The notes below the pieces were generated by a model. That model searched no databases and had not been told where the DNA came from. It was given only the letters and a program-made list of their open reading frames with translations. A program made the translations under genes and the position numbers. Positions 1 to 13,836 of a stretch of DNA of 15,804 nucleotides are shown in pieces; the stretch's first letter is position 1, and each line of letters opens with the position of its first letter. This DNA is from Anaerohalosphaeraceae bacterium. GTDB taxonomy: Bacteria > Planctomycetota > Phycisphaerae > Sedimentisphaerales > Anaerohalosphaeraceae. The stretch covers positions 1 to 15,804 of the forward strand of contig CAXXSL010000003.1 of NCBI GenBank assembly GCA_963675525.2, given 5' to 3'.

Positions 1-462
1 AATTCTTTCAAGATCGAAGGCCGGATGAAAACTATTCATTACCTGGCAACTGTTGTGTCATTCTATCGCCAGGTCATCGACGGCAAAATAGTCTCGCACG
101 AAGAGGCCCTGAAACTGCTCAACCGGGTTCCCAATCGCGGTTATTCCACCGGTTTTATCAAAGGAATGGTTCAGCCCGACGACTATTCCGTCGGCAAAAG
201 TCTGTCCGGCGCCAATGCTACGTTTGTCGGCAATGTCACCGACTGCGACAACGGCGTGTCAACCGTCGAAGTCCGCAACAAGATTCACGCCGGCGACACG
301 CTCGAAGTCCTCAAACCCGACGGCAGTTTATCCGAAATCACGCTACCTGCGGAACTGACAACCTCTCACGGCGACCATGTTGATTTTGCCAATAATAGCC
401 AGTATATTATGCTGACCGAAACACTCCCGGAATATGCCATTCTGCGAAGAGTGAAATCATAA
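1..462 (+). CDS. trhP: U32 family peptidase-like protein (TrhP/YegQ-like tRNA hydroxylation protein), C-terminal part; 5' end lies outside the window
   Basis: Frame 1 is open from base 1 (NSFKIEGRMKT), which is the U32 SxKIEGRxK motif, so ATG 25 is internal. NRGYSTGF and the C-terminal FVG...VEVRNKIHAGDTLEVLKP...YAILR domain resemble YegQ/TrhP. Confidence 0.8.
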   Translation, partial: NSFKIEGRMKTIHYLATVVSFYRQVIDGKIVSHEEALKLLNRVPNRGYSTGFIKGMVQPDDYSVGKSLSGANATFVGNVTDCDNGVSTVEVRNKIHAGDTLEVLKPDGSLSEITLPAELTTSHGDHVDFANNSQYIMLTETLPEYAILRRVKS

Positions 463-479
463 ACCCTTTGTAAACGAAG

Positions 480-2201
480 ATGATGCTGAAACGATTTATC
501 AAATATTATAAACCGCATCGCGGCTTATTTACTGTAACAATGGCCGCGGCTGTCTTGGGAGCCGTTTTAACGGTCTTTATCCCTGCGGTCACTCGCCATC
601 TTCTGGATAAGTCGATTCCCAATGAAGATCTGGCCGGGATCATCCGCAATCTGATGATAATGCTGATATTGATTCTGCTGACAACCGCGATGAGCTATAT
701 CCGTGTCAAATGGGGACACATCCTCGGCGTGCGGATCGAATTCGACATGCGGGCCGAATTCTTCAGCCATCTCCAAAAACTCAGCTTCAACTACTTCGAC
801 AATGTCAAGACCGGCCACCTGATGAGCCGCATCTCCAACGACCTCGGCCAAATCGCTGAAGTCGCCCATCATGCACCCGAAGATTTGCTCATTTCACTGT
901 CACTGCTCATTGGGGCGTTTATCGCCATGTTCAGCTTCAATGCCCCGCTGGCCATCATTGCCATGATTCCGATACCATTTATGGTCGGCTGGGGTGTTTT
1001 TTACGGCGGCAGTATGCGGCGCGGGTTTCGCAACGTCCGCAAAAAGATTGCCGACATTAACAGCCGGGTCGAAAACTCGGTTCAGGGCGTGCGCGAGGTC
1101 AAATCCTATGCCAACGAAGATGAGGAAATCGACAAATTCGATATCGTCAATGTCAGCTTTCGTTCGGCGAAGGAAAAAATGTACGGCATCATGGCGGTCT
1201 TCTTTTCCGTCATGAGCCTTTTGATTGAAAGCTATTTTCTAATCGTCATCGCCGGCGGCGTCATCCTGATTCATCTGGGTCAAAATGTAACATCCGGCGA
1301 TCTGCTGGCATTTGTATTGTATGTCTATTTTATTCTTAACCCGATTCGCCGACTGGTCAATTTTGCCGAGCAGTTTCAGCAGGGAGCCGCCTGCTTCGAA
1401 CGCTTTACCGAGATCATGGATATCGAGCCGGACATCGTGGACAAAAAAGACGCCCGCACATTTAGCCCCGTCAACGGCGAGATCACGTTTGACAAGGTCA
1501 GCTTCAAATACAACCAATCGCATGACTGGATATTAAAAGACATCACCCTGACAATCCCCGCACACAAAACCATCGCCATCGTCGGCGAATCCGGCGCGGG
1601 AAAGTCCACCATCGTCTCGCTCATCCCCCGCTTCTACGAACCTGAGAAAGGAACCATTCGCATCGATGCCCATGACATCATGGATTTGAAGCAAAAGTTC
1701 CTGCGCGAAAACATCGGCATCGTTCAACAGAATGTTTTCCTGTTCGACTCGACCATTCGCGACAACATCATGTACGGCAACCCCGCCGCAACCGAGGAAC
1801 AGTTGATCGACGCCGCCCAAAAAGCCAACATCTACGACTATATTCAATCGCTGCCGGAAGGCTTCGATACGCTGGTCGGCGAGCGCGGCGTCAAACTGTC
1901 CGGCGGGCAGAAACAGCGCATTTCCATCGCGCGGGTTTTCCTGAAAAATCCGCCTGTCTTTATCTTCGACGAGGCCACCAGTTCACTCGACAGCGAATCC
2001 GAAACGCTCATTCAGCAGTCACTGACACTGCTGTGCCAAAACCGCACGACCATCATCATCGCACACCGTCTGAGCACAGTCAAAAACGCAGACTACCTGT
2101 ACGTGATGAACCACGGCCAAATGGTCGAGCACGGCACCCACAACGAACTGCTCGAAAAGAAAAACTATTACCACAAGCTCTATACCATGAATTTATTTTA
2201 A
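480..2201 (+). CDS. Type IV ABC transporter, fused permease/ATP-binding protein (MsbA/Sav1866-like half-transporter)
   Basis: Hydrophobic N-terminal TM domain; Walker A GESGAGKS; Q-loop VQQ; signature LSGGQKQR; Walker B FIFDEATSSLD; H-loop IAHRL. Confidence 0.95.
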   Translation: MMLKRFIKYYKPHRGLFTVTMAAAVLGAVLTVFIPAVTRHLLDKSIPNEDLAGIIRNLMIMLILILLTTAMSYIRVKWGHILGVRIEFDMRAEFFSHLQKLSFNYFDNVKTGHLMSRISNDLGQIAEVAHHAPEDLLISLSLLIGAFIAMFSFNAPLAIIAMIPIPFMVGWGVFYGGSMRRGFRNVRKKIADINSRVENSVQGVREVKSYANEDEEIDKFDIVNVSFRSAKEKMYGIMAVFFSVMSLLIESYFLIVIAGGVILIHLGQNVTSGDLLAFVLYVYFILNPIRRLVNFAEQFQQGAACFERFTEIMDIEPDIVDKKDARTFSPVNGEITFDKVSFKYNQSHDWILKDITLTIPAHKTIAIVGESGAGKSTIVSLIPRFYEPEKGTIRIDAHDIMDLKQKFLRENIGIVQQNVFLFDSTIRDNIMYGNPAATEEQLIDAAQKANIYDYIQSLPEGFDTLVGERGVKLSGGQKQRISIARVFLKNPPVFIFDEATSSLDSESETLIQQSLTLLCQNRTTIIIAHRLSTVKNADYLYVMNHGQMVEHGTHNELLEKKNYYHKLYTMNLF

Positions 2202-2233
2202 CCAATCTTTTCGTTTGGATTGATAGAATTTCA

Positions 2234-2274
2234 ATGGAAGAAAAAGTCGATAGCGATTATAAAACCTGCTATCG
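2234..2274 (+). promoter_or_regulatory. Possible promoter/operator upstream of the first S41 gene
   Basis: ATGGAA-N18-TATAAA (2234-2263) shares CGATTATAAA with the murC upstream region. The -10 box is flanked by a 7-bp inverted repeat CGATAGC (2248-2254) / GCTATCG (2268-2274). Confidence 0.35.
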
Positions 2275-2313
2275 CATTGAAGGACTAAAAAGCTCAAGAT
2301 TGAAGGAAACAGA

Positions 2314-4557
2314 ATGAGCCATCTGATAAACCACCGGAATATAGTGTTATGGATTGTTATTGTTGGTTTAATTAACATTTCGTTTGCTGAAAAATCAACC
2401 AACCGCTGGAAGTGTACCGGCTTGCTGGATCCGCAAACGCAATCCCAACTCGCAGGAAGAGAAAAATTTTTCGATGAATTGTTTCAATTCCCCTCGGAAT
2501 ACAAAAATGCTTCGGCCTCAGAGAAGAAAAAGCTGGAAAAGCAGTGGGTCAAAGAGTTGAACGATTCGGACCGGGAAAAAGCAACTTTAGCCGCCGCTAA
2601 TCTTGGAATTGTCAAATCAAAACCTGCAGCTCGGTATATTGAAAAAGCGGTGATCGAAAAAGGGGGACGGTTTCGCTGGGTTTGCACGCGGTCACTTGGG
2701 CAAATCGGAGCGAAAAGTTCGATCCCCGTCCTCATCGACCTGCTGGACAACCAGCAAAAAGATTCTCAAATTTACGCCAGAGTATCGCTTGCGGAAATTG
2801 CCGGCATCTACTTCGGAGACGACAAACGAGAATGGCAGGAATGGGCGGGCCTGCCCGTCGATTCGACTGTAACGGCGGAAACTTCTGATTCCAACGGTCC
2901 CAACGCAAATGAGAAACTCCAAACTGCCCGGGAAATGTTAAGGGGAACAGATAAGAATACAGTTGAGGCGCAGCGAATTTTGCTTGAACTGGCCGACAAT
3001 CCCGGTTCACTGTCACCGGCCCCACTCTGCTATGTCTATGTTTACCTGGGGTATATTGAGGATTTGGCGAATAACAGGCAAGCCGCAATGGATTGGTTCA
3101 AAAAAGCGGTTGAACTCGAAACGGTAAAACAAAACGGCATTTACAGCGTTGCCGAGCAGGGTCTGACTGCACCGGTCACCCACCTGAATCATCTCGACGG
3201 CCAAACAGGCAATTCATGGACGGGTACTGTGCGAACAGTTAGAAAAGCATCGGTCTCCAAAAACCGGCCGGAAGAATTCGGTACCCCCAAAATGAACCTG
3301 TCTGCGACAGAACGGTTGGAGAACTTCGAGGCCTTGGCCGAAGCGATCGATCAGTATTATTCATTTTTCGATTACAAAAACATTGACTGGCTCCAAATTA
3401 CAACAGAATATCGTCAAAAAATCGAAAGGGCAAAAACGAGTACAGAATTCTACCGCATATTGTATCAATTCGTAAGGGAATTACAGGACGCCCACTCCCG
3501 GCTGTGCAGTTACGACAATATTCCCAAACTCGGTCCTTATACTCCGCCAGTCGTCACTCGGCTTATCGAAGGACAGCTGACCGTCACGAACGTATTGCCG
3601 AATTCCGAAGCGTATGATAATGGCCTGCGTCCCGGTGTCATCATTACGGGAATCGACGGGAAGGACGTGCCTGAAAAGATCGAACAGATTCGCCCTTTCA
3701 TCAAAATGGTCTCGTCCGAACGAAGTTTTCGTGAAGAAGCGTATCGGCGCATCCTTTGCGGTCCAAAAGGCAGTGACGTTACTGTGCGTTTTTTCATGCT
3801 GGATGGCCAGACCAAAATCGTCCGACTTGAAAGAACGGTTTCATACAAAAAGATGGCCCCAAAACCTGATTTTCCGGTTACAAAACAGGAATATATTTGG
3901 GATGGTATCCATCCCAGCGGCTGCGGCTACATTCGCATTGTGTCGTTCGGGGGAAAACAGCAGGGCGCTGAGGAATTTGATAAGGCCCTTGAACGGCTGA
4001 AAAACACATCGGGGTTGATTCTGGATGTCCGCGACAATCCCGGCGGCTTCGGAGCAGGTCAAGAGCAAATTATTGGCCGATTTATTACGGAATCCACCAA
4101 TGTCAATATTGTCTACAAAAAGAACGGTCCCGGTCATAATGATTTCGCCGAACGTCACACGTATTATGAACCAAAAGGTACCTGGCAGTATACCAAACCG
4201 GTCATATTATTAATGGACTCCTTCACAGGCAGTGCCTCCGACTTATTCGTCTGCAGTCTGGCAAGTACCGGCCGAGTCGTCACCATGGGCACCTCCACTC
4301 ATGGCAACCTGTCCGGTACCAGTGTGTACGTTCACCTGCCCTGCGATCTGGTAGTCCGCGTGTCGGCTGGCTATATCTGCGATGCCGCCGGCAATATCAT
4401 CGAGCGAAACGGGAACGTACCGATGATACACGCCGCCTTGACCATCGCCGACATCCGCAATGGTACCGACTCAGTCATCGACCGCGCCGCCGAACAATTA
4501 CAACTTCAGGAAACAATCCTAAACAAAGAAAATTTGAAAATTAAATCCTCACATTAG
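2314..4557 (+). CDS. Secreted S41 family peptidase with HEAT-like repeats, TPR-like helix pair, tricorn C1-like helical domain and PDZ domain
   Basis: N-terminal signal peptide. HEAT-like RSLGQIGAKSSIPVLIDLL. TPR-like YVYLGYIEDLANNRQAAMDWFKKAVEL. C1-like IDQYYSFFDYKNIDW...LQDAH. PDZ SEAYDNGLRPGVIITGIDG. S41 core GYIRIVSF, LILDVRDNPGG, TGSASD, GTSTHG. Confidence 0.9.
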   Translation: MSHLINHRNIVLWIVIVGLINISFAEKSTNRWKCTGLLDPQTQSQLAGREKFFDELFQFPSEYKNASASEKKKLEKQWVKELNDSDREKATLAAANLGIVKSKPAARYIEKAVIEKGGRFRWVCTRSLGQIGAKSSIPVLIDLLDNQQKDSQIYARVSLAEIAGIYFGDDKREWQEWAGLPVDSTVTAETSDSNGPNANEKLQTAREMLRGTDKNTVEAQRILLELADNPGSLSPAPLCYVYVYLGYIEDLANNRQAAMDWFKKAVELETVKQNGIYSVAEQGLTAPVTHLNHLDGQTGNSWTGTVRTVRKASVSKNRPEEFGTPKMNLSATERLENFEALAEAIDQYYSFFDYKNIDWLQITTEYRQKIERAKTSTEFYRILYQFVRELQDAHSRLCSYDNIPKLGPYTPPVVTRLIEGQLTVTNVLPNSEAYDNGLRPGVIITGIDGKDVPEKIEQIRPFIKMVSSERSFREEAYRRILCGPKGSDVTVRFFMLDGQTKIVRLERTVSYKKMAPKPDFPVTKQEYIWDGIHPSGCGYIRIVSFGGKQQGAEEFDKALERLKNTSGLILDVRDNPGGFGAGQEQIIGRFITESTNVNIVYKKNGPGHNDFAERHTYYEPKGTWQYTKPVILLMDSFTGSASDLFVCSLASTGRVVTMGTSTHGNLSGTSVYVHLPCDLVVRVSAGYICDAAGNIIERNGNVPMIHAALTIADIRNGTDSVIDRAAEQLQLQETILNKENLKIKSSH

Positions 4558-4587
4558 TAAATATTTTACATCCGCCGAAAAGATATC

Positions 4588-4616
4588 TTGAACACCGGGG
4601 CTGATTGGATTATATA
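4588..4616 (+). promoter_or_regulatory. Sigma70-like promoter, apparently that of the murC remnant; now upstream of the second S41 gene
   Basis: TTGAAC-N17-TATATA, in the same ATCTTGAA...GATTATA context seen upstream of intact murC (7689-7719). Confidence 0.55.
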
Positions 4617-4658
4617 GGGATCCTGTTGAAAACATTTTAAAACCAGCAGGAAATTACA

Positions 4659-4710
4659 ATGACGGGTGTTTCAGGAAAAGAAATTTCATTTTTCGGCATT
4701 GGTGGGATTG
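4659..4710 (+). pseudogene. Remnant of the 5' end of a diverged murC allele
   Basis: AGGA RBS then ATG, reading MTGVSGKEISFFGIGGI (GKKFHFxGIGGI if a +1/-1 indel pair is allowed) versus MurC MNIKGKKYHFIGIGGIG. 4674-4710 vs 7766-7802 is 25/37 nt identical, and all differences within GIGGI are synonymous third positions. Confidence 0.65.
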
Positions 4711-4714
4711 CCCT

Positions 4715-4777
4715 CATACCGAACTGCTGAAAAAGAAAGAGTATTACCACAAACTCTATACGATGAATTTATTTTAA
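4715..4777 (+). repeat. Diverged direct copy of the last 63 nt of the ABC transporter gene (2139-2201), including its stop codon
   Basis: 55/63 nt identical with no gaps. Encodes HTELLKKKEYYHKLYTMNLF* versus HNELLEKKNYYHKLYTMNLF*. 4 of the 8 differences are synonymous. Confidence 0.95.
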
Positions 4778-4805
4778 CACAAGTTACAAGATAAAGAGGT
4801 CTCAT

Positions 4806-6143
4806 ATGAAATCCAAAATCGCCATCCTGTTATTTTTTGTCGGTCTTCTGTCAGCCAATACTTTCGCCAGACCGCCGAAAGCCATTAAGATATACCCTGA
4901 AAATGGTGCCACCGATGTCAAACCGGGACCGACCAAAATACGGATTCTTTTCGATCAGGATATGAGTTCCGGCGGTTACTCTCTTTGCGGCGGCGGGGAA
5001 AATTATCCGGAAATCGTCGGCCGACCCAGATGGTCGGGCAAACGGGCCTTCGTTTTTTCGGCCAACCTGAAACCGGACCATGAATATTCCTTCGGCATCA
5101 ATTGCCCTTCCGCACAAAACTTTAAAAGCGTCACCGGGGAATCCGCCGAAGTCTTGTTCGTGACATTCTATACCGCCGGCGAAGACGGAGCACCTAACCA
5201 TCAGGATACGTTGACAACCGAAGAGAACCAGGCGGCTTTTGATGCGCTGAAAGTCGCCGTGACAAAAAACTATTCTTATCGTGACTTAAAAGGACTGGAT
5301 TGGCAGGCCGTGCTGGAAGAATATAAACCGCAATTGCTGCAGGCCTCCAGTCCCGAAAAATTCGTATCCGTCGCCAAACTGGTCCTCAGCAAGGCTAAAG
5401 ACAAGCACATCTGGTTCAAGATCGGTGACAAAACGATTCCCTGTTATACCAGTCCCGTCACCCTGAACGCAAATTTCAAAATTCTAAATGAACTTGTCCC
5501 GAATCTCAAAAAAGAAAGCAACACTATTTACAGCGGCCGATTCGACGACGGCATTGGTTATATCCTCATTAATAGTTGGGCCGTTCACACAGAGAAAGAA
5601 CTGGAAGGATTTTTTGCCGCATTGAATCATTTTTCCAACGCATCCGGTCTTATCATCGACGTTCGCAGCAACGGAGGCGGAAGTGAACCCTTGGCCCGGC
5701 AGGTTGCCGGATGCTTCATCGACAAGCCAAAACTGTACGCAAAAAACATCAATGTTGACCCCCACAACCCGGGGCAATTTACGCCGGTCTATGAACGTTT
5801 TGTCCGGCCGAACAAAACAAGACCGAAATACCGCGGCAAAGTAGCCGTACTCATCGGCCCGGTCGTCATGAGCAGTTGTGAAGCGTTTGTATTGATGATG
5901 AAACAGGTACCCGGATGCACGATTATCGGTGAGCCGACACAAGGCAGTTCCGGCAATCCGCAGCCGTACGATCTGGGTAATGGAGTCACGGTATTCCTCC
6001 CGTCATGGCAGACCCTGCTGCCGGATGGGACCTGCTTTGAAGGCAAAGGCATCATGCCCGATATACCGGTTAAAGCCGGGCCTGAGCAATTTAAAAACGA
6101 CGATCCCATTATTGCTGAGGCATTAAAGCAATTACGAAAATAA
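4806..6143 (+). CDS. Secreted S41 family peptidase with N-terminal Ig-like (Big_5-type) domain, no PDZ
   Basis: GAGGT RBS. Signal peptide ending TFA. Ig-like IYPENGATDVKP...ILFDQDMS...LKPDHEY. C1-like NYSYRDLKGLDW...KDKH. S41 core GYILINSW, LIIDVRSNGGG, VMSSCE, GEPTQG, EGKGIMPD. Confidence 0.9.
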   Translation: MKSKIAILLFFVGLLSANTFARPPKAIKIYPENGATDVKPGPTKIRILFDQDMSSGGYSLCGGGENYPEIVGRPRWSGKRAFVFSANLKPDHEYSFGINCPSAQNFKSVTGESAEVLFVTFYTAGEDGAPNHQDTLTTEENQAAFDALKVAVTKNYSYRDLKGLDWQAVLEEYKPQLLQASSPEKFVSVAKLVLSKAKDKHIWFKIGDKTIPCYTSPVTLNANFKILNELVPNLKKESNTIYSGRFDDGIGYILINSWAVHTEKELEGFFAALNHFSNASGLIIDVRSNGGGSEPLARQVAGCFIDKPKLYAKNINVDPHNPGQFTPVYERFVRPNKTRPKYRGKVAVLIGPVVMSSCEAFVLMMKQVPGCTIIGEPTQGSSGNPQPYDLGNGVTVFLPSWQTLLPDGTCFEGKGIMPDIPVKAGPEQFKNDDPIIAEALKQLRK

Positions 6144-6160
6144 CTGAAAGTTCATTCGTG

Positions 6161-6189
6161 AAACAGTAAATTCCTTCCATTTACTGTTT
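6161..6189. terminator. Hairpin between convergent genes, possible bidirectional terminator
   Basis: Perfect 11-bp stem AAACAGTAAAT / ATTTACTGTTT with a 7-nt loop, overlapping the stop codon of the minus-strand gene. The stem is AT-rich, so it is not a textbook terminator. Confidence 0.45.
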
Positions 6190-7518
6190 TGCAATGCAAT
6201 ATAAATTCTTCGAACCTTTAAGATAAAGCTCATCACCGACAATGATCGGTGAGGCGTCAAAACCGTCATCCAGTTTATTTGTGGCCAGTACCTCTAAGGT
6301 ATCGGACACTTTGATAACTTTCGTTGTTCCCTTCCGGCCTACGAAATAAACACGATCCTTCACACCCACCGGTGAGGCATAAATGCCCGACAGACCCTCG
6401 AGCATCTGTTTCACATAGTTCTCTTTACCATCCTTGGCGTCGTAACAGGAGATCTCCGCTTTATTTCCTGAACAGACGTAGATCTTGTCACCCGCCAAAA
6501 CAGGAGAGGGAACATACGGGGTGTCCCGTGTTACTTTCCACACGATTGCATCTGAATTAGTCAGGTCACCCGTTTGTCCCAGCTTGATCGCATACAAAGC
6601 CGCACCGCGAAAGCCGCTGGTTAAGTAGACATTTCCAAATCCTGCCACCGATGTCGGAATCACATTATCTGTCTGACCGCCGCATGTCCAAATGACATCG
6701 CCCGTGTGCAAATCATAAGCCCGGGCAAGATTGGCGCCATTCACGATAATCTGGATCTTCCCGTCAACTTCAACCGCAATCGGAGTGGTCCAGCTTGTCC
6801 GCTCATCCCGTTCCTTTTTCCACAGCTCCTCGCCTGTCTCTTTATTAAACGCAACAATAAATGAATCTCCTTCATGATCACAAACAACAATCACCGCATT
6901 GTCGGCCACACAGGGAGAAGTGCCTTCCCCGAATCCTGCCCGTATATCCATTTTAACAAGATCTTGACTCCATTTGATATTACCCTCCATATCCAGGCAG
7001 TAGAAACCGCGAGAGCCAAAATTTGCCCAGATATGCTTGCCGTCTGTGACCGGAGAATAAGATGCAAAGCTCCCATCCGCGTGATGTCCCTGATGCGGTA
7101 ATCCCTCAGTAACAGTTTTCTGCCAGATCATTTTACCGTCTTTTCGATCAAGACATACCACGTCAAACTTATACTCACTCGTAGGCCCCTGGCTCATTCT
7201 CCGCCTGCCCCCACCCTGATCAGCGGGAGTTTCAGCTTTCACTTCTTTCGTCGGAATCGCCGTGAGGAAAATAAGCTTATCCTCCCAGACAACCGGCGTC
7301 GATAAACCGCTTCCCGGAATCGCCACTTTCCACTTAATATTCTCCGTCTCGCTCCAGGTCAAAGGAGGATTTCCCTCAGGAGCAGATCCTGTATTCACAG
7401 GCCCGCGCCAACTGGGCCAATTGGCTCCGTCCGCACCAGCGGCAAATAGTGTAAATAGATAAACAATAAAACAAGATACGAAAGTCGTTTGGGTAATTTT
7501 TTCTTTCATGATAATCAT
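6181..7518 (-). CDS. PQQ-binding-like beta-propeller repeat protein (BamB-like fold, planctomycete-expanded family)
   Basis: Signal peptide, then NWPSWRGP, WSETENIKWK, STPVVW, repeated W-docking blades (TGEELWK, TGDVIW), ASP motifs and terminal LYCI. AGGAG RBS upstream. Confidence 0.9.
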   Translation of the reverse strand: MIIMKEKITQTTFVSCFIVYLFTLFAAGADGANWPSWRGPVNTGSAPEGNPPLTWSETENIKWKVAIPGSGLSTPVVWEDKLIFLTAIPTKEVKAETPADQGGGRRRMSQGPTSEYKFDVVCLDRKDGKMIWQKTVTEGLPHQGHHADGSFASYSPVTDGKHIWANFGSRGFYCLDMEGNIKWSQDLVKMDIRAGFGEGTSPCVADNAVIVVCDHEGDSFIVAFNKETGEELWKKERDERTSWTTPIAVEVDGKIQIIVNGANLARAYDLHTGDVIWTCGGQTDNVIPTSVAGFGNVYLTSGFRGAALYAIKLGQTGDLTNSDAIVWKVTRDTPYVPSPVLAGDKIYVCSGNKAEISCYDAKDGKENYVKQMLEGLSGIYASPVGVKDRVYFVGRKGTTKVIKVSDTLEVLATNKLDDGFDASPIIVGDELYLKGSKNLYCIAKQ

Positions 7519-7557
7519 CTCTCCTGTATTTGTGGCACTAATACATTTTTTGGCGAC

Positions 7558-7586
7558 ATTATAATTAAGCGCAAAGTCCTTTTCAT
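7558..7586 (-). promoter_or_regulatory. Sigma70-like promoter for the PQQ-propeller gene
   Basis: Minus strand ATGAAA-N17-TATAAT, with the -10 box about 40 nt upstream of the start codon. Confidence 0.55.
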
Positions 7587-7691
7587 AGTAAGTATACGGA
7601 GTATCGTCTAAGGTTACAGAGAATTATGGACAAAAAAATCTTTACCTCCATATCTGTCTGACAAAACTCATGTTAAATCAAAAAAATCATC

Positions 7692-7721
7692 TTGAAAAAA
7701 ACCGCATTAGTCGATTATAAA
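7692..7721 (+). promoter_or_regulatory. Sigma70-like promoter of the murC-murB-ddl-ftsQ-like operon
   Basis: TTGAAA-N18-TATAAA, ending 32 nt before the murC ATG. Confidence 0.55.
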
Positions 7722-7753
7722 TCGATGATTAGGATTATTGGAAACCCTCATTT

Positions 7754-9145
7754 ATGAATATTAAAGGTAAAAAATATCACTTTATCGGTATTGGCGGCAT
7801 CGGAACCAGTGGTTTGGCCAAGATCTTGATGAAAAACGACGCAATTGTCACCGGCTCAGACATGGAAAACAGTTCTGTCATTGAGCATCTTCGCACGCTC
7901 GGCAGCCGTATTGTAAACGGTCACAGTCCCGACAATATTGCAGTCGATACAAACGAAGTTGTCATCAGTGCCGCCGTCACTGCCGCAAATCCCGAATTGG
8001 CAAGAGCTTCTGAATTGGGTCTGCCTATCTTCAAATATGCCGAAATGCTGGGCAAAATGTTCGACAGCTATGACGGTATTGCTTTCGCCGGGACCCACGG
8101 CAAAAGCACCACCAGCGGCTGGCTGGCCTACATCCTCGAAAAAGCGGGCAAAAAGCCCAATTACATCGTCGGCGCTGAAATCGGCCAACTTCAAAGCTCC
8201 AGCGGCGTCGGTAGTAGTAAAGTCTTTATTGCTGAAGCCTGCGAATACGACCGCAGTTTTCTGAACCTGCACCCACAGATCGCGGTCCTCTTGAACATTG
8301 AACAGGACCACCTGGACTATTACCGCAACGAAGATGAAATCGTCGAAGCGTTCGCTCAGTTTGCCGCCCAAGTCAAGTCCGGCGGCATTCTCATCGCCAA
8401 CGGACAGGACAAAAACGTCGCTCGTATCCTTCGCAAGTTCGCCACCGAACCGAAGATCGTAACCTTTGGCCTCCAAACGCATTGCGACTTCAACGCTCGC
8501 AACCTCGAACGGGTTGAAGGATGCTACGAATTTGATGTTTTCCGCAATGACGCCCTCTTGGGCCGATCCCGCATCGAATTACCAGGTGAACACAATGTCC
8601 TCAACGCCTTGGCAGTCATCGCCGCGGCCGTCCATGCGGGGCTGAAGTTCGAGGAAATCGCATCGCATTTAGGCCGCTTTAGCGGTATTGACCGTCGGCT
8701 GATGTTCAAAGACGAAATCGGCGGGATCACTATTCTGGACGATTACGCTCACCATCCAACGGAAATACGGGCATCCCTGAAAGCCATCCGTGAAAAATAC
8801 GCTCCCACACGTCTTTGGTGCATTTTTCAGCCGCATCAATACAGTCGAACCCGTTTTTTACTTGATGATTTTGCGGAAAGCTTTAAGCTAGCCGATATTA
8901 CGGTGGTGCCGGAGATTTATTTTGTCCGGGATACCGCCGAAAGCCGCAACACGGTCAACGCCGAAACGCTGGTCGAACGCATCCGTCAGCATAACTGCCA
9001 GGCCGTGTTTATAAAGGATTTTTCAGGCATTTTAGAACACTTAAAAAATAATGTAACCTCCGGCGACCTGGTCGTCACCATGGGAGCCGGAACGATTTGG
9101 AAGGTGGCAGATGAGTACATTCAGTGGCTTCGAGAGCATTGTTAA
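7754..9145 (+). CDS. murC: UDP-N-acetylmuramate--L-alanine ligase
   Basis: HFIGIGGIG.SGLA, P-loop AGTHGKSTT, EACEYDRSFL, NIEQDHLDYY, DDYAHHPTE, FQPHQYSRT, TMGAG. Confidence 0.97.
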   Translation: MNIKGKKYHFIGIGGIGTSGLAKILMKNDAIVTGSDMENSSVIEHLRTLGSRIVNGHSPDNIAVDTNEVVISAAVTAANPELARASELGLPIFKYAEMLGKMFDSYDGIAFAGTHGKSTTSGWLAYILEKAGKKPNYIVGAEIGQLQSSSGVGSSKVFIAEACEYDRSFLNLHPQIAVLLNIEQDHLDYYRNEDEIVEAFAQFAAQVKSGGILIANGQDKNVARILRKFATEPKIVTFGLQTHCDFNARNLERVEGCYEFDVFRNDALLGRSRIELPGEHNVLNALAVIAAAVHAGLKFEEIASHLGRFSGIDRRLMFKDEIGGITILDDYAHHPTEIRASLKAIREKYAPTRLWCIFQPHQYSRTRFLLDDFAESFKLADITVVPEIYFVRDTAESRNTVNAETLVERIRQHNCQAVFIKDFSGILEHLKNNVTSGDLVVTMGAGTIWKVADEYIQWLREHC

Positions 9146-11049: not shown

Positions 11050-11982
11050 TTGATGGCAAAAAAAAGAAAGACAACCAAAAAAGGGGGCGGCTTATCCGGC
11101 TTCTTTTCGAAAAAGAAAAAAAGCTCCCGTTCGCGGTCTAAAAAGGCTTCCTCGTCCTGGTCCTTCAACCTGAAATTCACGCTCGCCATCCTCATCACGG
11201 TCCTTCTGCTGACCGGCATTGCCGTCAGCCTCTTCTACATGGACCGCTATATTAAACCCAACGCCTCCAGCAAACAGGCTTACGGGTCGCTGGTTCTGGC
11301 CGAACCCGGGATCTGGGTCAATGAAGACTGGAAGCAAAAGGTCCAGGAGATCACCGGAAAAGGACCGTTTCTGCTGGATGACAGATCGGCAAAAGACCTC
11401 GCACAAAAACTGCAGGTTCTGTCATGGATGGATAATATCCACGTAAAAACAACCCCGGAAAAGATCCTCGTATATGCCGATTACCGAAGACCGGTCGCCC
11501 TCGTTGATCTCGGCGGAGGAAAGAAATACTATCTGGATGCGCAAATGGTCGTCATGGATTATATCCCCGTCACGGCGATTCCGACCATCGAGATCAAGGG
11601 GATTGCCTCGCCCCGCTCGATTCCGACGCCCGGCAACCGCTGGGCCGCCGAAGACGCCCATGCAGGTGTGGATTTGCTCGATATCTTATATAAAATGGAC
11701 CTGCATTTTCAACAACAGCAGCAAATGGAAAAACCGCTGCTGGACGATATCGAAAGTGTCGATGTGTCCAACTTTGCCGCCCGAAGAAGCAATTCGGCGC
11801 CGCACCTGTTCCTGAATGTCAAAGACGGCTCAACACGGGTCTTCTGGGGAGCGGCATGGGGACAGGCCGCACGCTATCTGGAACAGGACGAAAAAGACAA
11901 GTTGGCTGATCTGTACCAGTTTTTCATGGACAACAACAGCCTGCGGGGAAAAGCCAAATACATCGAACTGCGGCAGCTATAA
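11050..11982 (+). CDS. Divergent FtsQ/DivIB-like bitopic membrane protein (start TTG 11050 or ATG 11053)
   Basis: Located directly after ddl. Basic cytoplasmic N-terminus and a single TM helix. YRRPVALV resembles FtsQ ERxPxA, and terminal YIELR resembles FtsQ YxDLR. Overall similarity to canonical FtsQ is low. Confidence 0.65.
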   Translation: MMAKKRKTTKKGGGLSGFFSKKKKSSRSRSKKASSSWSFNLKFTLAILITVLLLTGIAVSLFYMDRYIKPNASSKQAYGSLVLAEPGIWVNEDWKQKVQEITGKGPFLLDDRSAKDLAQKLQVLSWMDNIHVKTTPEKILVYADYRRPVALVDLGGGKKYYLDAQMVVMDYIPVTAIPTIEIKGIASPRSIPTPGNRWAAEDAHAGVDLLDILYKMDLHFQQQQQMEKPLLDDIESVDVSNFAARRSNSAPHLFLNVKDGSTRVFWGAAWGQAARYLEQDEKDKLADLYQFFMDNNSLRGKAKYIELRQL

Positions 11983-12043: not shown

Positions 12044-12418
12044 CTAGCCAATTTCCTTATTATTCAGAATATCCAGCCCGGCTTTCAGGGACACATACCG
12101 ATAAGGGATTTGGTGTTTTGTACAGAACGCCTTGAATTTATGGATGGCTTGTTCACTGAGCAGATTTCCCTGTTCGCTCTCGCCTTCACAGGCAAAGATC
12201 CGGCAGCCCGAAAAGCGATAGGGATACACGCTGCATTTGCCATCAACGCGATAGGGGCAAACACCGGACACCATCTCTTTGATCTCCGGCCCGACAAAAT
12301 GCTGAAAATGCAATAGCTCCGGGCCCGTCACATACAGCCGGTGCCCGAACACCTCAAAATCGCAGCACTCCCCGCACGCCCGACAAGACCGGTCCATCTG
12401 CGCAACCTCCCCATCCAC
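12044..12418 (-). CDS. YkgJ-like cysteine cluster protein (CxxCxxCC, putative Fe-S/Zn); true start probably further upstream
   Basis: CRACGECC...CPY...CSVYPYRFSGCRIFAC. The frame stays open upstream to 12517 but has no ATG/GTG/TTG before GTG 12418. Confidence 0.8.
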   Translation of the reverse strand: MDGEVAQMDRSCRACGECCDFEVFGHRLYVTGPELLHFQHFVGPEIKEMVSGVCPYRVDGKCSVYPYRFSGCRIFACEGESEQGNLLSEQAIHKFKAFCTKHQIPYRYVSLKAGLDILNNKEIG

Positions 12419-12492
12419 CCACCGGTAAATAGTGTCAACCTCTTTGATGATATTGAGAGTTTGTTTTAAACAATTGAATCTATTACAGTCAT

Positions 12493-12533
12493 TTGGAATT
12501 TGTTTAGTGCTTAGAAATTAGGATTTAGGATTT
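12493..12533. repeat. Period-7 TTAGNNN repeats overlapping the 3' end of the upstream YkgJ gene
   Basis: TTAGTGC TTAGAAA TTAGGAT TTAGGAT (12504-12531), preceded by TTGGAAT TTGT. Confidence 0.7.
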
Positions 12534-12972
12534 TTCTGTTTTCCCACCAGCATTTTTGTTTCCGGATCGCCTCAATTTCCTCAAACGAATAAAACTTCCC
12601 ACGGTTAATGCCGGCGCAGCGCATCGCCGCCCAGTTCCACGCATCCGGACCGGATAGATTCGCATCCCAGAACGGCCATGTCCGGCACTGGTTCGGCCGC
12701 ACCGAATACACCGCACACCCCCGGCAGCCGGTTTTCTCACCCGTCAGGAAAATGCAGTCCTTGGAAGTTTTATCTTCCTTGATACTATGACGCAGGCCGT
12801 AACGTTTGAGATACTTTTGCTTGGTCGCGTCGACCGTTATCCCCAGATGCTCGGCCATAAACTCAATCTCCGGCTTGGAAATCCAGATATACCCCTCCTC
12901 CGGCCCCGCACAGCAGCCCCCGCAGCCGATACACTCAAAATTCAACCCACATGAATACCAATGATTACTCAC
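12511..12972 (-). CDS. YkgJ family cysteine cluster protein (putative Fe-S/Zn-chelating)
   Basis: GTG start with AGGA upstream. FECIGCGGCC...DCIFL...CAVYSVRPNQCRTWPFW...CAGI. Confidence 0.92.
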   Translation of the reverse strand: MSNHWYSCGLNFECIGCGGCCAGPEEGYIWISKPEIEFMAEHLGITVDATKQKYLKRYGLRHSIKEDKTSKDCIFLTGEKTGCRGCAVYSVRPNQCRTWPFWDANLSGPDAWNWAAMRCAGINRGKFYSFEEIEAIRKQKCWWENRKILNPNF

Positions 12973-13140: not shown

Positions 13141-13836
13141 CTACTTATCCCGCCAGGACTTTATGGTCATCTTTTCGGTGGGGATGTACTCGACGTGCCA
13201 ATCCAGAAACAGATAATTACATCCATCCCGATGGCGTTTTCTCGCCACACGTCGCCCGGTGGTGGGGTCAGTACTGGTCGAGTCGGGAAGATGATTCGGG
13301 TTCCATACATCAATACGCTGAATACCCGGGTCGGTTTCATCCTTTATCACAGGCCGCCACGATCCCTCTTCATTTTCAGCCATATAAACCGTTGACATGG
13401 GATACATGAATGTGTTCAGTTTGGTCGGAGACGTAATCTCGTGTCCTGTTATGTCGGTTTTACTGTCAAACGTCCATGAACTCACGACATAGCAGACAGT
13501 CTGCTCTTTGTCGGGAAAACTCAGACAACGGTAAATTTTGACGTTGCGGTAATCGGTCGTATCCTCCGTATGTCCCACATAGGGCAGAAAACACTGAAAC
13601 CATGTCCCGAACTGGCCGCCGCGAGGGATGAAGGTATCGTTATCTTCCGCGTACAAATACGCGGCAAGACCGATCTGCCCCATATTGCTGGCACAAACAG
13701 TCATCTGGGCCTGGGCTTTGGCCTTTTTCAACGCCGGCAAGAGCACAGACAAAAGCAGCGCAATGATCGCGATCACCACCAGCAACTCGATCAGCGTAAA
13801 ACCTCGAAACCGCGCGTTTGTATGGTTATAAGACAT
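13141..13836 (-). CDS. Prepilin-type N-terminal cleavage/methylation domain protein with H-X9-DG-type C-terminal motif (DUF1559-like)
   Basis: RG|FTLIELLVVIAIIALLLSVLLPAL, CASNMGQIG, C-terminal HRDGCNYLFLDWHVE. Confidence 0.92.
   Translation of the reverse strand: MSYNHTNARFRGFTLIELLVVIAIIALLLSVLLPALKKAKAQAQMTVCASNMGQIGLAAYLYAEDNDTFIPRGGQFGTWFQCFLPYVGHTEDTTDYRNVKIYRCLSFPDKEQTVCYVVSSWTFDSKTDITGHEITSPTKLNTFMYPMSTVYMAENEEGSWRPVIKDETDPGIQRIDVWNPNHLPDSTSTDPTTGRRVARKRHRDGCNYLFLDWHVEYIPTEKMTIKSWRDK

Follow-up and report, generated by a model that had tools for sequence, protein, structure and literature searches.

Here we describe a doubled cargo slot in the genome of an Anaerohalosphaeraceae bacterium (G000, 4.12 Mb; assembly GCA_963675525.2), in which two protease genes are separated by back-to-back remnants of the slot's own flanking genes. 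The slot lies in a window of 15,804 nucleotides (nt), the whole of contig C3, to which coordinates refer unless another locus is named. Its left flank is the full copy of a gene for an MsbA-like ABC exporter (480–2201; hereafter the ABC gene) and its right flank is a full murC (7754–9145), the product of which scores above the TIGR01082 cut-off. Between them lie S41a, encoding an S41-family protease of 747 amino acids (aa) (2314–4557); a murC promoter-like and leader remnant (4580–4658); a murC 5′ coding remnant (4659–4709); an ABC 3′ remnant (4710–4778); S41b, encoding a second S41-family protease of 445 aa (4806–6143); a gene for a PQQ/BamB-type β-propeller (hereafter PQQ; 6181–7518); and the promoter-like region of the resident murC (7680–7753). 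S41a is the cargo of unit 1; S41b and PQQ are the cargo of unit 2. All of these features are on the plus strand except PQQ, which is on the minus strand. This order and its coordinates agree with an initial annotation made from the DNA alone, in which the orientation of PQQ was unstated. Its statement that the window holds no integrase, transposase or tRNA was confirmed: profile searches of the 13 window proteins found no integrase or transposase family, no tRNA, tmRNA or Rfam match was found in the window, and none of the 12 tyrosine-recombinase matches in G000 is on this contig.

Remnants and joint between the proteases

The murC remnant runs for 17 codons from its ATG at 4659, contains two compensating 1-nt indels and is of the allele type of G003, G004, G006, G010 and G012, all congeners of G000. 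It matches the murC profile at E=2e-5. In a shuffle test, the match to the resident murC start gave p = 0.0015 and that to the G012 start p = 0.0005; the p values for a pair of intergenic control stretches were 0.05 and 0.03, which makes the comparison with the resident murC alone the weaker one. Upstream of the remnant, promoter-like hexamers at 4588 and 4611 (17-nt spacing) occupy positions that are conserved before murC in congeners; those of the resident gene are at 7692 and 7715. In a consensus promoter scan, which made 7 calls against 7.4 in shuffles and so showed no excess, both murC promoters were missed.

The ABC remnant comprises the last 22 codons of the gene and its stop, without indels. 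It is 86% identical over 69 nt to positions 2134–2202, and is the sole further copy of that stretch in the genome at E < 0.01. The homology ends at the ABC stop codon, with no extension into the cargo, and the longest exact run common to the repeats is 16 nt.

These unrelated genes, murC and ABC, are fused at 4709/4710. The illegitimate joint (4704–4716, plus strand) falls on a hexamer that is common to murC and ABC alleles and has since eroded: both sets of alleles encode Gly-Thr at this point, and at least five of the six bases are common in 51 of 72 allele pairs, a level reached by 0.6% of random registers or by 4.9% when nine nearby registers are allowed. Reconstructed from the relatives, the joint would thus have formed on a microhomology of 5–6 bases.

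The murC remnant is closest to G012, G004, G010, G006 and G003 (92–97 of about 133 columns), compared with 79/133 for the resident murC and 81/137 for L114, the locus with the closest murC found (87% protein identity). Approximately unbiased (AU) tests reject a grouping of the remnant with G000 and L114 (p = 0.002) and, marginally, one of the remnant with G000 (p = 0.046); G007 was omitted from this tree. The remnant therefore looks like an allele of another clade, not of the resident gene. The initial annotation had taken the partners to be related strains. They are instead species, and the exchange is old, because the remnant reaches at best 97/133 to any sampled allele and carries the two compensating indels. 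At the eight sites where the ABC remnant differs from the full gene, it has the majority state of eight relatives at three, ties at one and has the minority state at four.

Two dissimilar protease cargos

The two proteases are 26% identical. S41a has HEAT-like, Tricorn C1, PDZ and S41 domains, and S41b has Ig-like, Tricorn C1 and S41 domains; the Peptidase_S41 domains score 89.7 and 97.8 bits, respectively, against a Pfam cut-off of 24, and neither protease reaches an NCBIfam subfamily cut-off. H394 and S640 (S41a numbering) are invariant among four aligned proteins; we take them to be the catalytic His and Ser of S41 peptidases, the activity of the cargos being a prediction. Both are putatively secreted, judging by eye from their hydrophobic N termini. 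Composition gives no foreign signal (G+C at third codon positions of 0.53 for S41a versus 0.55 for S41b). Because proteases that are 26% identical stand beside remnants that are 60–86% identical, the cargo is no recent duplicate, and a recent duplication appears to fit neither remnants nor cargo.

S41a is the exotic cargo of the slot. It was found in none of 14 congeners, and the predicted relative carrying S41a only did not appear among them. Homologues occur in 2 of 69 genomes of the family, both away from ABC and murC in the stretches examined (that of G084, L105:10054-11770, is in pieces), and a GTDB scan returned 34 distant loci, mostly from Bacteroidota, with 28–42% identity in the best segment. 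S41b has homologues in 6 of 14 congeners. In G002 and G007 it stands within a PadR – HAAS/Ig-like – S41 operon (L031:2006-4806; L036:6049-8498), of which G001 shows the start (L063:8810-9445). The PadR and HAAS genes are absent in G000, leaving S41b behind the stranded murC promoter, a putative promoter that may now drive it.

The slot in relatives

The congener set holds one genome per species; 12 of the 14 genomes gave a murC match and 11 had DNA upstream of it (the murC locus of G006 is incomplete upstream). In the gyrB tree, our reference for species, G000 pairs with G001 and G002 joins next (support 100 and 99). G001 is thus the nearest genome, yet its assembly lacks murC and murB and its slot could not be closed. 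A further 80 metagenome murC loci, most of them distant, included 44 with at least 3 kb upstream.

The ABC gene precedes murC in 4 of the 11 congeners and on one metagenome contig (L115) among the 44, and these five relatives have five different fillings, ranging from empty to five genes. G002 carries PQQ, a β-helix protein, PadR, a HAAS protein and a longer S41b; G007 carries PQQ, PadR, HAAS, S41b and a small open reading frame (ORF); G005 carries a zinc-ribbon-like gene, PQQ and an unknown gene; and L115 reads ABC – PQQ – murC. The slot of G003 is empty, with a 443-nt ABC 3′ remnant directly before the murC promoter and after an M16 peptidase gene (L035:15595-16136); this query found no full ABC orthologue in that 99% complete genome. 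In at least six congeners the ABC gene is absent from the murC locus or located elsewhere. U32 directly precedes murC in G011, and U32 and S41b precede it in G013; the neighbour is ilvD in G004 and a pectinesterase gene in G008. In G010 and G012 the ABC gene is elsewhere and only S41b 3′ remnants of 261 and 65 nt stand before murC (L037:3069-3329; L010:1162-1226).

The ABC–murC interval is therefore a variable cargo slot across species, with ABC as a long-lived but not universal flank. The initial annotation had described a hypervariable slot between ABC and murC and had asked whether ABC ever precedes murC in relatives. It does, in the five named above, none of which has the identical two-protease layout. 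The different cargo in relatives bears out the description; ABC as a fixed flank does not stand, and conserved flanks with different content, the mark of a hotspot, are found in only part of the genus (4 of 11 congeners). Relatives with S41b and PQQ, also predicted, do carry both genes in the slot, but in the opposite order to that in G000.

Other arrangements of these genes were also seen. G012 has a full, diverged S41b behind the ABC gene on another contig; in G037, from another family, an ABC orthologue directly follows murC, in the reverse order and with no murB behind (L065:8158-11306); and murC of G008 was matched as two pieces about 100 nt apart (L041:1072-2565).

Crossover signals in the flanking genes

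Over the later part of murC, murB and ddl and the gene after them, L114 and G000 are 0.81–0.95 identical, compared with 0.69 in the first 200 nt of murC; their S41b genes are only 0.57–0.75 identical. In a triplet test that controls for conservation (in which the G011 row is locus L117, matching the G011 upstream and 5′ sequence), identity between the G000 and L114 murC genes is 0.719 over nt 1–260 and 0.876 after nt 270 (p ≤ 0.007 whichever of the 15 third taxa is used); the break falls at nt 255–277 in 11 of 15 triplets (window positions ~8010–8030). In ABC, the G000/G001 pair changes from 0.783 to 0.875 (p ≤ 0.0125 with 7 of 7 third taxa), with the break near nt 1002–1032 in 5 of 7 triplets (window ~1480–1510). 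The breakpoint check proposed earlier thus found breaks in both genes; the recombinant lineage was not told by AU tests. The 5′ part of G000 murC is farther than that of L114 from 13 of 15 others, and the 3′ part likewise, by less.

Two candidate sources failed. Derivation of the whole murC 5′ half from G013 or G011, suggested by identities, was not supported by trees, and a 3′ half of ABC from the donor clade was rejected (AU p = 0.004 for G000+G010+G012).

Gene-end scars elsewhere in the genome

The murC slot is not special: the same type of scar recurs across the G000 genome, the only one surveyed. Among 2780 ORFs of at least 150 aa, we collected copies of gene parts of 40–300 nt, at most 95% identical, outside ORFs and within 15 kb, with filters chosen after a first pass. 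Of the 39 diverged copies, 12 are 3′ ends lying downstream and 11 are 5′ ends lying upstream; another 2 are inward, 8 are internal and 6 are on the opposite strand. Outward copies thus outnumber inward ones by 23 to 2 (20 to 2 as genes; p=1e-4). Some matches are tails of paralogous secreted proteins, and the murC remnant itself is below the survey threshold. Scar hosts include topA, mutS, aroA, uvrC and an NIF3 gene. Pfam found no integrase among 56 proteins from 14 scar loci, and one IS110 transposase just past the aroA remnant; 1 of 20 scar hosts is within 2 kb of an integrase match, the other 19 being at least 20 kb away or on contigs without one.

A second doubled slot is found at topA (L194, G000:C8 151187-159606). 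There, an upstream gene, which we take to be RdgB/HAM1-like, is followed by a TonB receptor, a topA head fused to a tail of the upstream gene, a second TonB receptor and topA. The receptors are 45% identical, the tail match has p = 0.001–0.003, and six bases are common at the joint. In 6 of 14 relatives this slot has no cargo. G000's own topA allele is the nearest match to the remnant, a point in favour of either a close donor or a duplication. A threefold stack of mutS tails is present in G000 and, of 11 relatives, in G002, and stacking occurs once in G009. The mutS stack (L197, G000:C13 642600-653000; L247; L250) has two β-lactamase-fold proteins and a small gene pair, presumably nucleotidyltransferase/HEPN-like, between the tail copies. 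The deepest stack seen (L204, G000:C13 672400-692000) surrounds a 190-aa gene without a Pfam match, with four 5′-end copies upstream, one 3′-end copy downstream and about ten cargo genes between copies (radical SAM, laminin-G, β-lactamase fold and unknowns). At L201, the glycosidase cargo behind a CDP-alcohol phosphatidyltransferase scar is broken up over several ORFs.

Probable one-sided capture and alternative explanations

We consider it reasonably probable that a related species was the source of one cassette, through a process resembling homology-facilitated illegitimate recombination (HFIR), with a homology anchor at one end, an illegitimate joint at the other and no integrase. One linear donor fragment would have carried the whole donor slot and the edge of its far flank. 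A crossover in the near flank would have replaced the end of that gene, and the free donor end would have been joined at microhomology just inside the recipient's other flank, so that the earlier cargo remained, displaced to one side. The initial annotation had proposed such HFIR-like stacking. The foreign murC remnant, the crossover signals that make the flanks mosaic, the hexamer shared at the joint and the lack of a recombinase uphold it, as do the anatomy and the variable cargo of relatives; HFIR itself we infer from them. Recombination between long duplicated flanks would collapse the pair, which probably explains why the remnants are short. HFIR depends on RecA and on linear donor DNA delivered by transformation; G000 has comEC and two dprA genes.

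The incoming unit was either unit 2, anchored in murC beyond nt ~270, or unit 1, anchored in ABC. The former explains the murC break in one step. The latter suits the exotic S41a and would also cover the ABC break if a swap had come first. Both directions need the same number of events, and we place the choice near even, in line with the earlier view that the incoming unit cannot be told from the window.

Several observations weigh against one-sided capture. Control pairs break too (1 of 4 and 2 of 4 tests), so the crossover signals need not belong to this event, and the AU tests on the recombinant lineage gave p = 0.14–0.37. The clade uniting the murC remnant with the five genomes is supported at only 46/16. 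The ABC remnant is no nearer the other clade (53/60 to G000 and G001; 50–51/60 to G010, G012 and G007), and one of its sites is common to it and the full gene against all eight relatives. The joint has drifted from the hexamer, which makes the microhomology only a reconstruction from relatives. Matches to comEC and dprA also occur in 10 of 14 control genomes, and the outward polarity of the scars is expected from partial tandem duplication as well. Neither the donor, the pre-insertion recipient nor an S41a-only relative was found among the congeners, the family genomes and the GTDB scan. Finally, HFIR usually loses recipient DNA, and no loss is evident at the ABC–murC slot; S41b and PQQ, which are typical of the slot, remain in G000, and the PadR and HAAS genes of G001, G002 and G007 are absent.

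A circle is an unlikely but serious alternative. End-joining would have closed a linear piece of donor DNA (ABC tail – cargo – murC head) into a circle, making the murC/ABC joint, and a single crossover in one of the flanks would then have brought it in. This yields the same tandem anatomy and foreign alleles, and in E. coli conjugation such partial duplications made up 56 of 60 clones and were about ten times commoner than HFIR, in the results cited from that study (PMC3240628). On this route, however, the duplicated flank could not be shorter than the crossover anchor. The remnants span 51–69 coding nt, yet the distance from signal to gene end is ~270 nt in murC and ~700 nt in ABC, so a later trimming deletion would be needed.

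We regard as improbable an old tandem duplication inside a single chromosome, after which cargo and alleles were replaced through ordinary double crossovers and deletions did the trimming. It would account for the private site common to the two ABC tails and for the topA remnant being nearest G000's own allele; deletions have left gene-end remnants at the murC locus in G003, G010 and G012, and double-crossover turnover at flanking core genes is described as common in the part of the hotspot literature cited here (PMC5635113). Against it stand the several extra events that it needs, the murC remnant from another clade, the homology that halts at the ABC stop codon without entering the cargo, and the proteases that share 26% identity.

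More doubtful still is a relic of an integrative element at the ABC 3′ end, where the gene would have been restored with the element's tail and the integrase later lost or used in trans. Such elements are usually recognizable by a displaced gene tail, and G000 does contain the 12 tyrosine-recombinase matches. This contig has none of them; the murC promoter and start at the end of the insert are chromosomal slot DNA; 19 of the 20 scar genes are far from any match, as given above; and the scar hosts have no common target gene.

Chimeric misassembly of two strains may be dismissed as scarcely credible, even for a metagenome-type sample with short reads only and two confirming runs from one sample, given diverged and decayed remnants that are not an assembler product, a longest common exact run as short as that noted above, and single contigs that span the joint in both runs. 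Those runs (X1 and X2), from one sample that is possibly the source of the assembly, each gave a single contig covering 1–8757, with 0 and 2 differences, flat depth and no joint listed at 4710; low-depth joints in the run contigs were short matches to other organisms and were disregarded.

Comparison with known systems

An HFIR-type mechanism is already long published. The passages cited here report it from S. pneumoniae, A. baylyi as well as P. stutzeri, and as rare in E. coli (PMC3240628, PMC2884548), with joints that mostly carry 3–10 bp of microhomology (PMC3240628) and, in the laboratory, as rare and generally accompanied by loss of recipient DNA (PMC3240628, PMC5361080). One-sided capture at the murC slot would share with these descriptions a homologous joint paired with an illegitimate one, a short microhomology, retention of foreign DNA and no dedicated recombinase. 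It differs in that the laboratory products, as described there, lose recipient DNA of similar size, whereas both cargos survive in G000; the partners in the G000 case are about 12–28% diverged today.

The closest natural likenesses in the cited accounts are the type VI secretion system effector–immunity arrays of V. cholerae (PMC5361080) and the contact-dependent inhibition orphans of Acinetobacter (PMC6336857). Both are attributed there to HFIR, and in both a module is added behind a conserved anchor, the old one is pushed outward and remnants stack. Their anchor is a toxin gene and their orphans give immunity; in G000, an ABC exporter gene and murC serve as anchors, the remnants of the two flanks are joined back to back and proteases make up the cargo. 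Hotspots free of mobile genetic elements (MGEs) and minimal mobile elements, as characterized in the cited portions of PMC5635113, PMC3787668 and PMC1797815, likewise hold variable genes between conserved flanks, with no integrase or tRNA and with flanking genes that recombine more than core genes elsewhere, a trait that the murC and ABC breaks may reflect; 27% of hotspots lack mobility proteins, with double crossover at the flanks (PMC5635113). Those are defined within species and by double-crossover replacement, whereas the G000 slot varies between species, has a left flank that is itself variable and was added to rather than replaced. In the S. aureus lpl cluster, the moving unit is reported to run from the 3′ part of one gene through the 5′ part of the next (PMC2568036), a likeness to G000, but the lpl flanks are paralogues that recombine at a centre common to them, and those of G000 are unrelated genes. 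PMC6382021 belongs to the same comparison literature. By analogy, the slot appears to behave like HFIR at an MGE-free hotspot. Our literature searches found no papers on natural transformation and homologous recombination in Phycisphaerae and, for genome-wide gene-end scars, turned up nothing beyond the known HFIR arrays.

Neighbouring genes

To the left, the 3′ part of a U32 peptidase-family gene (1–462, plus strand) is the outer neighbour of the slot; U32 is also found upstream of murC in G002, G011 and G013. To the right, murC is followed next by murB and ddl. An ORF at 11050–11982 has no Pfam or NCBIfam match and is presumably FtsQ by position. Downstream of this cell-wall cluster are two tandem CxxCxxCC-family genes and a gene with a prepilin N-methylation motif (12044–12972 and 13141–13836). 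Outside the window, rpoB is in two pieces in G000 (L085/L086, G000:C19 10681-14398), and rpoB frames are about 200 aa longer in G008, G010, G012 and G014 (L077, L082-L084), possibly through an insertion such as an intein.

Implications

The doubled slot is a natural footprint of gene gain without an integrase, and since both flank ends are kept at one joint, its parents and crossover points can be studied. Tentatively, and with more doubt than confidence, we suggest that one-sided capture of whole slots from other species might be a routine engine of gene gain at housekeeping borders in this genus. Apparent tandem duplicates (the S41 pair, the TonB pair at topA and the pair of β-lactamase-fold hydrolases at mutS) would then be stacked xenologous fillings; the joints would be back to back since the donor pairs at both flanks, bringing the slot borders together, and a captured core-gene promoter would be kept to express the displaced cargo. 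If the murC slot is typical, tandem 'paralogues' beside core genes would often be imports rather than duplicates, and the first or last few hundred bases of murC, mutS and topA would travel with the cargo and could mislead phylogenies.

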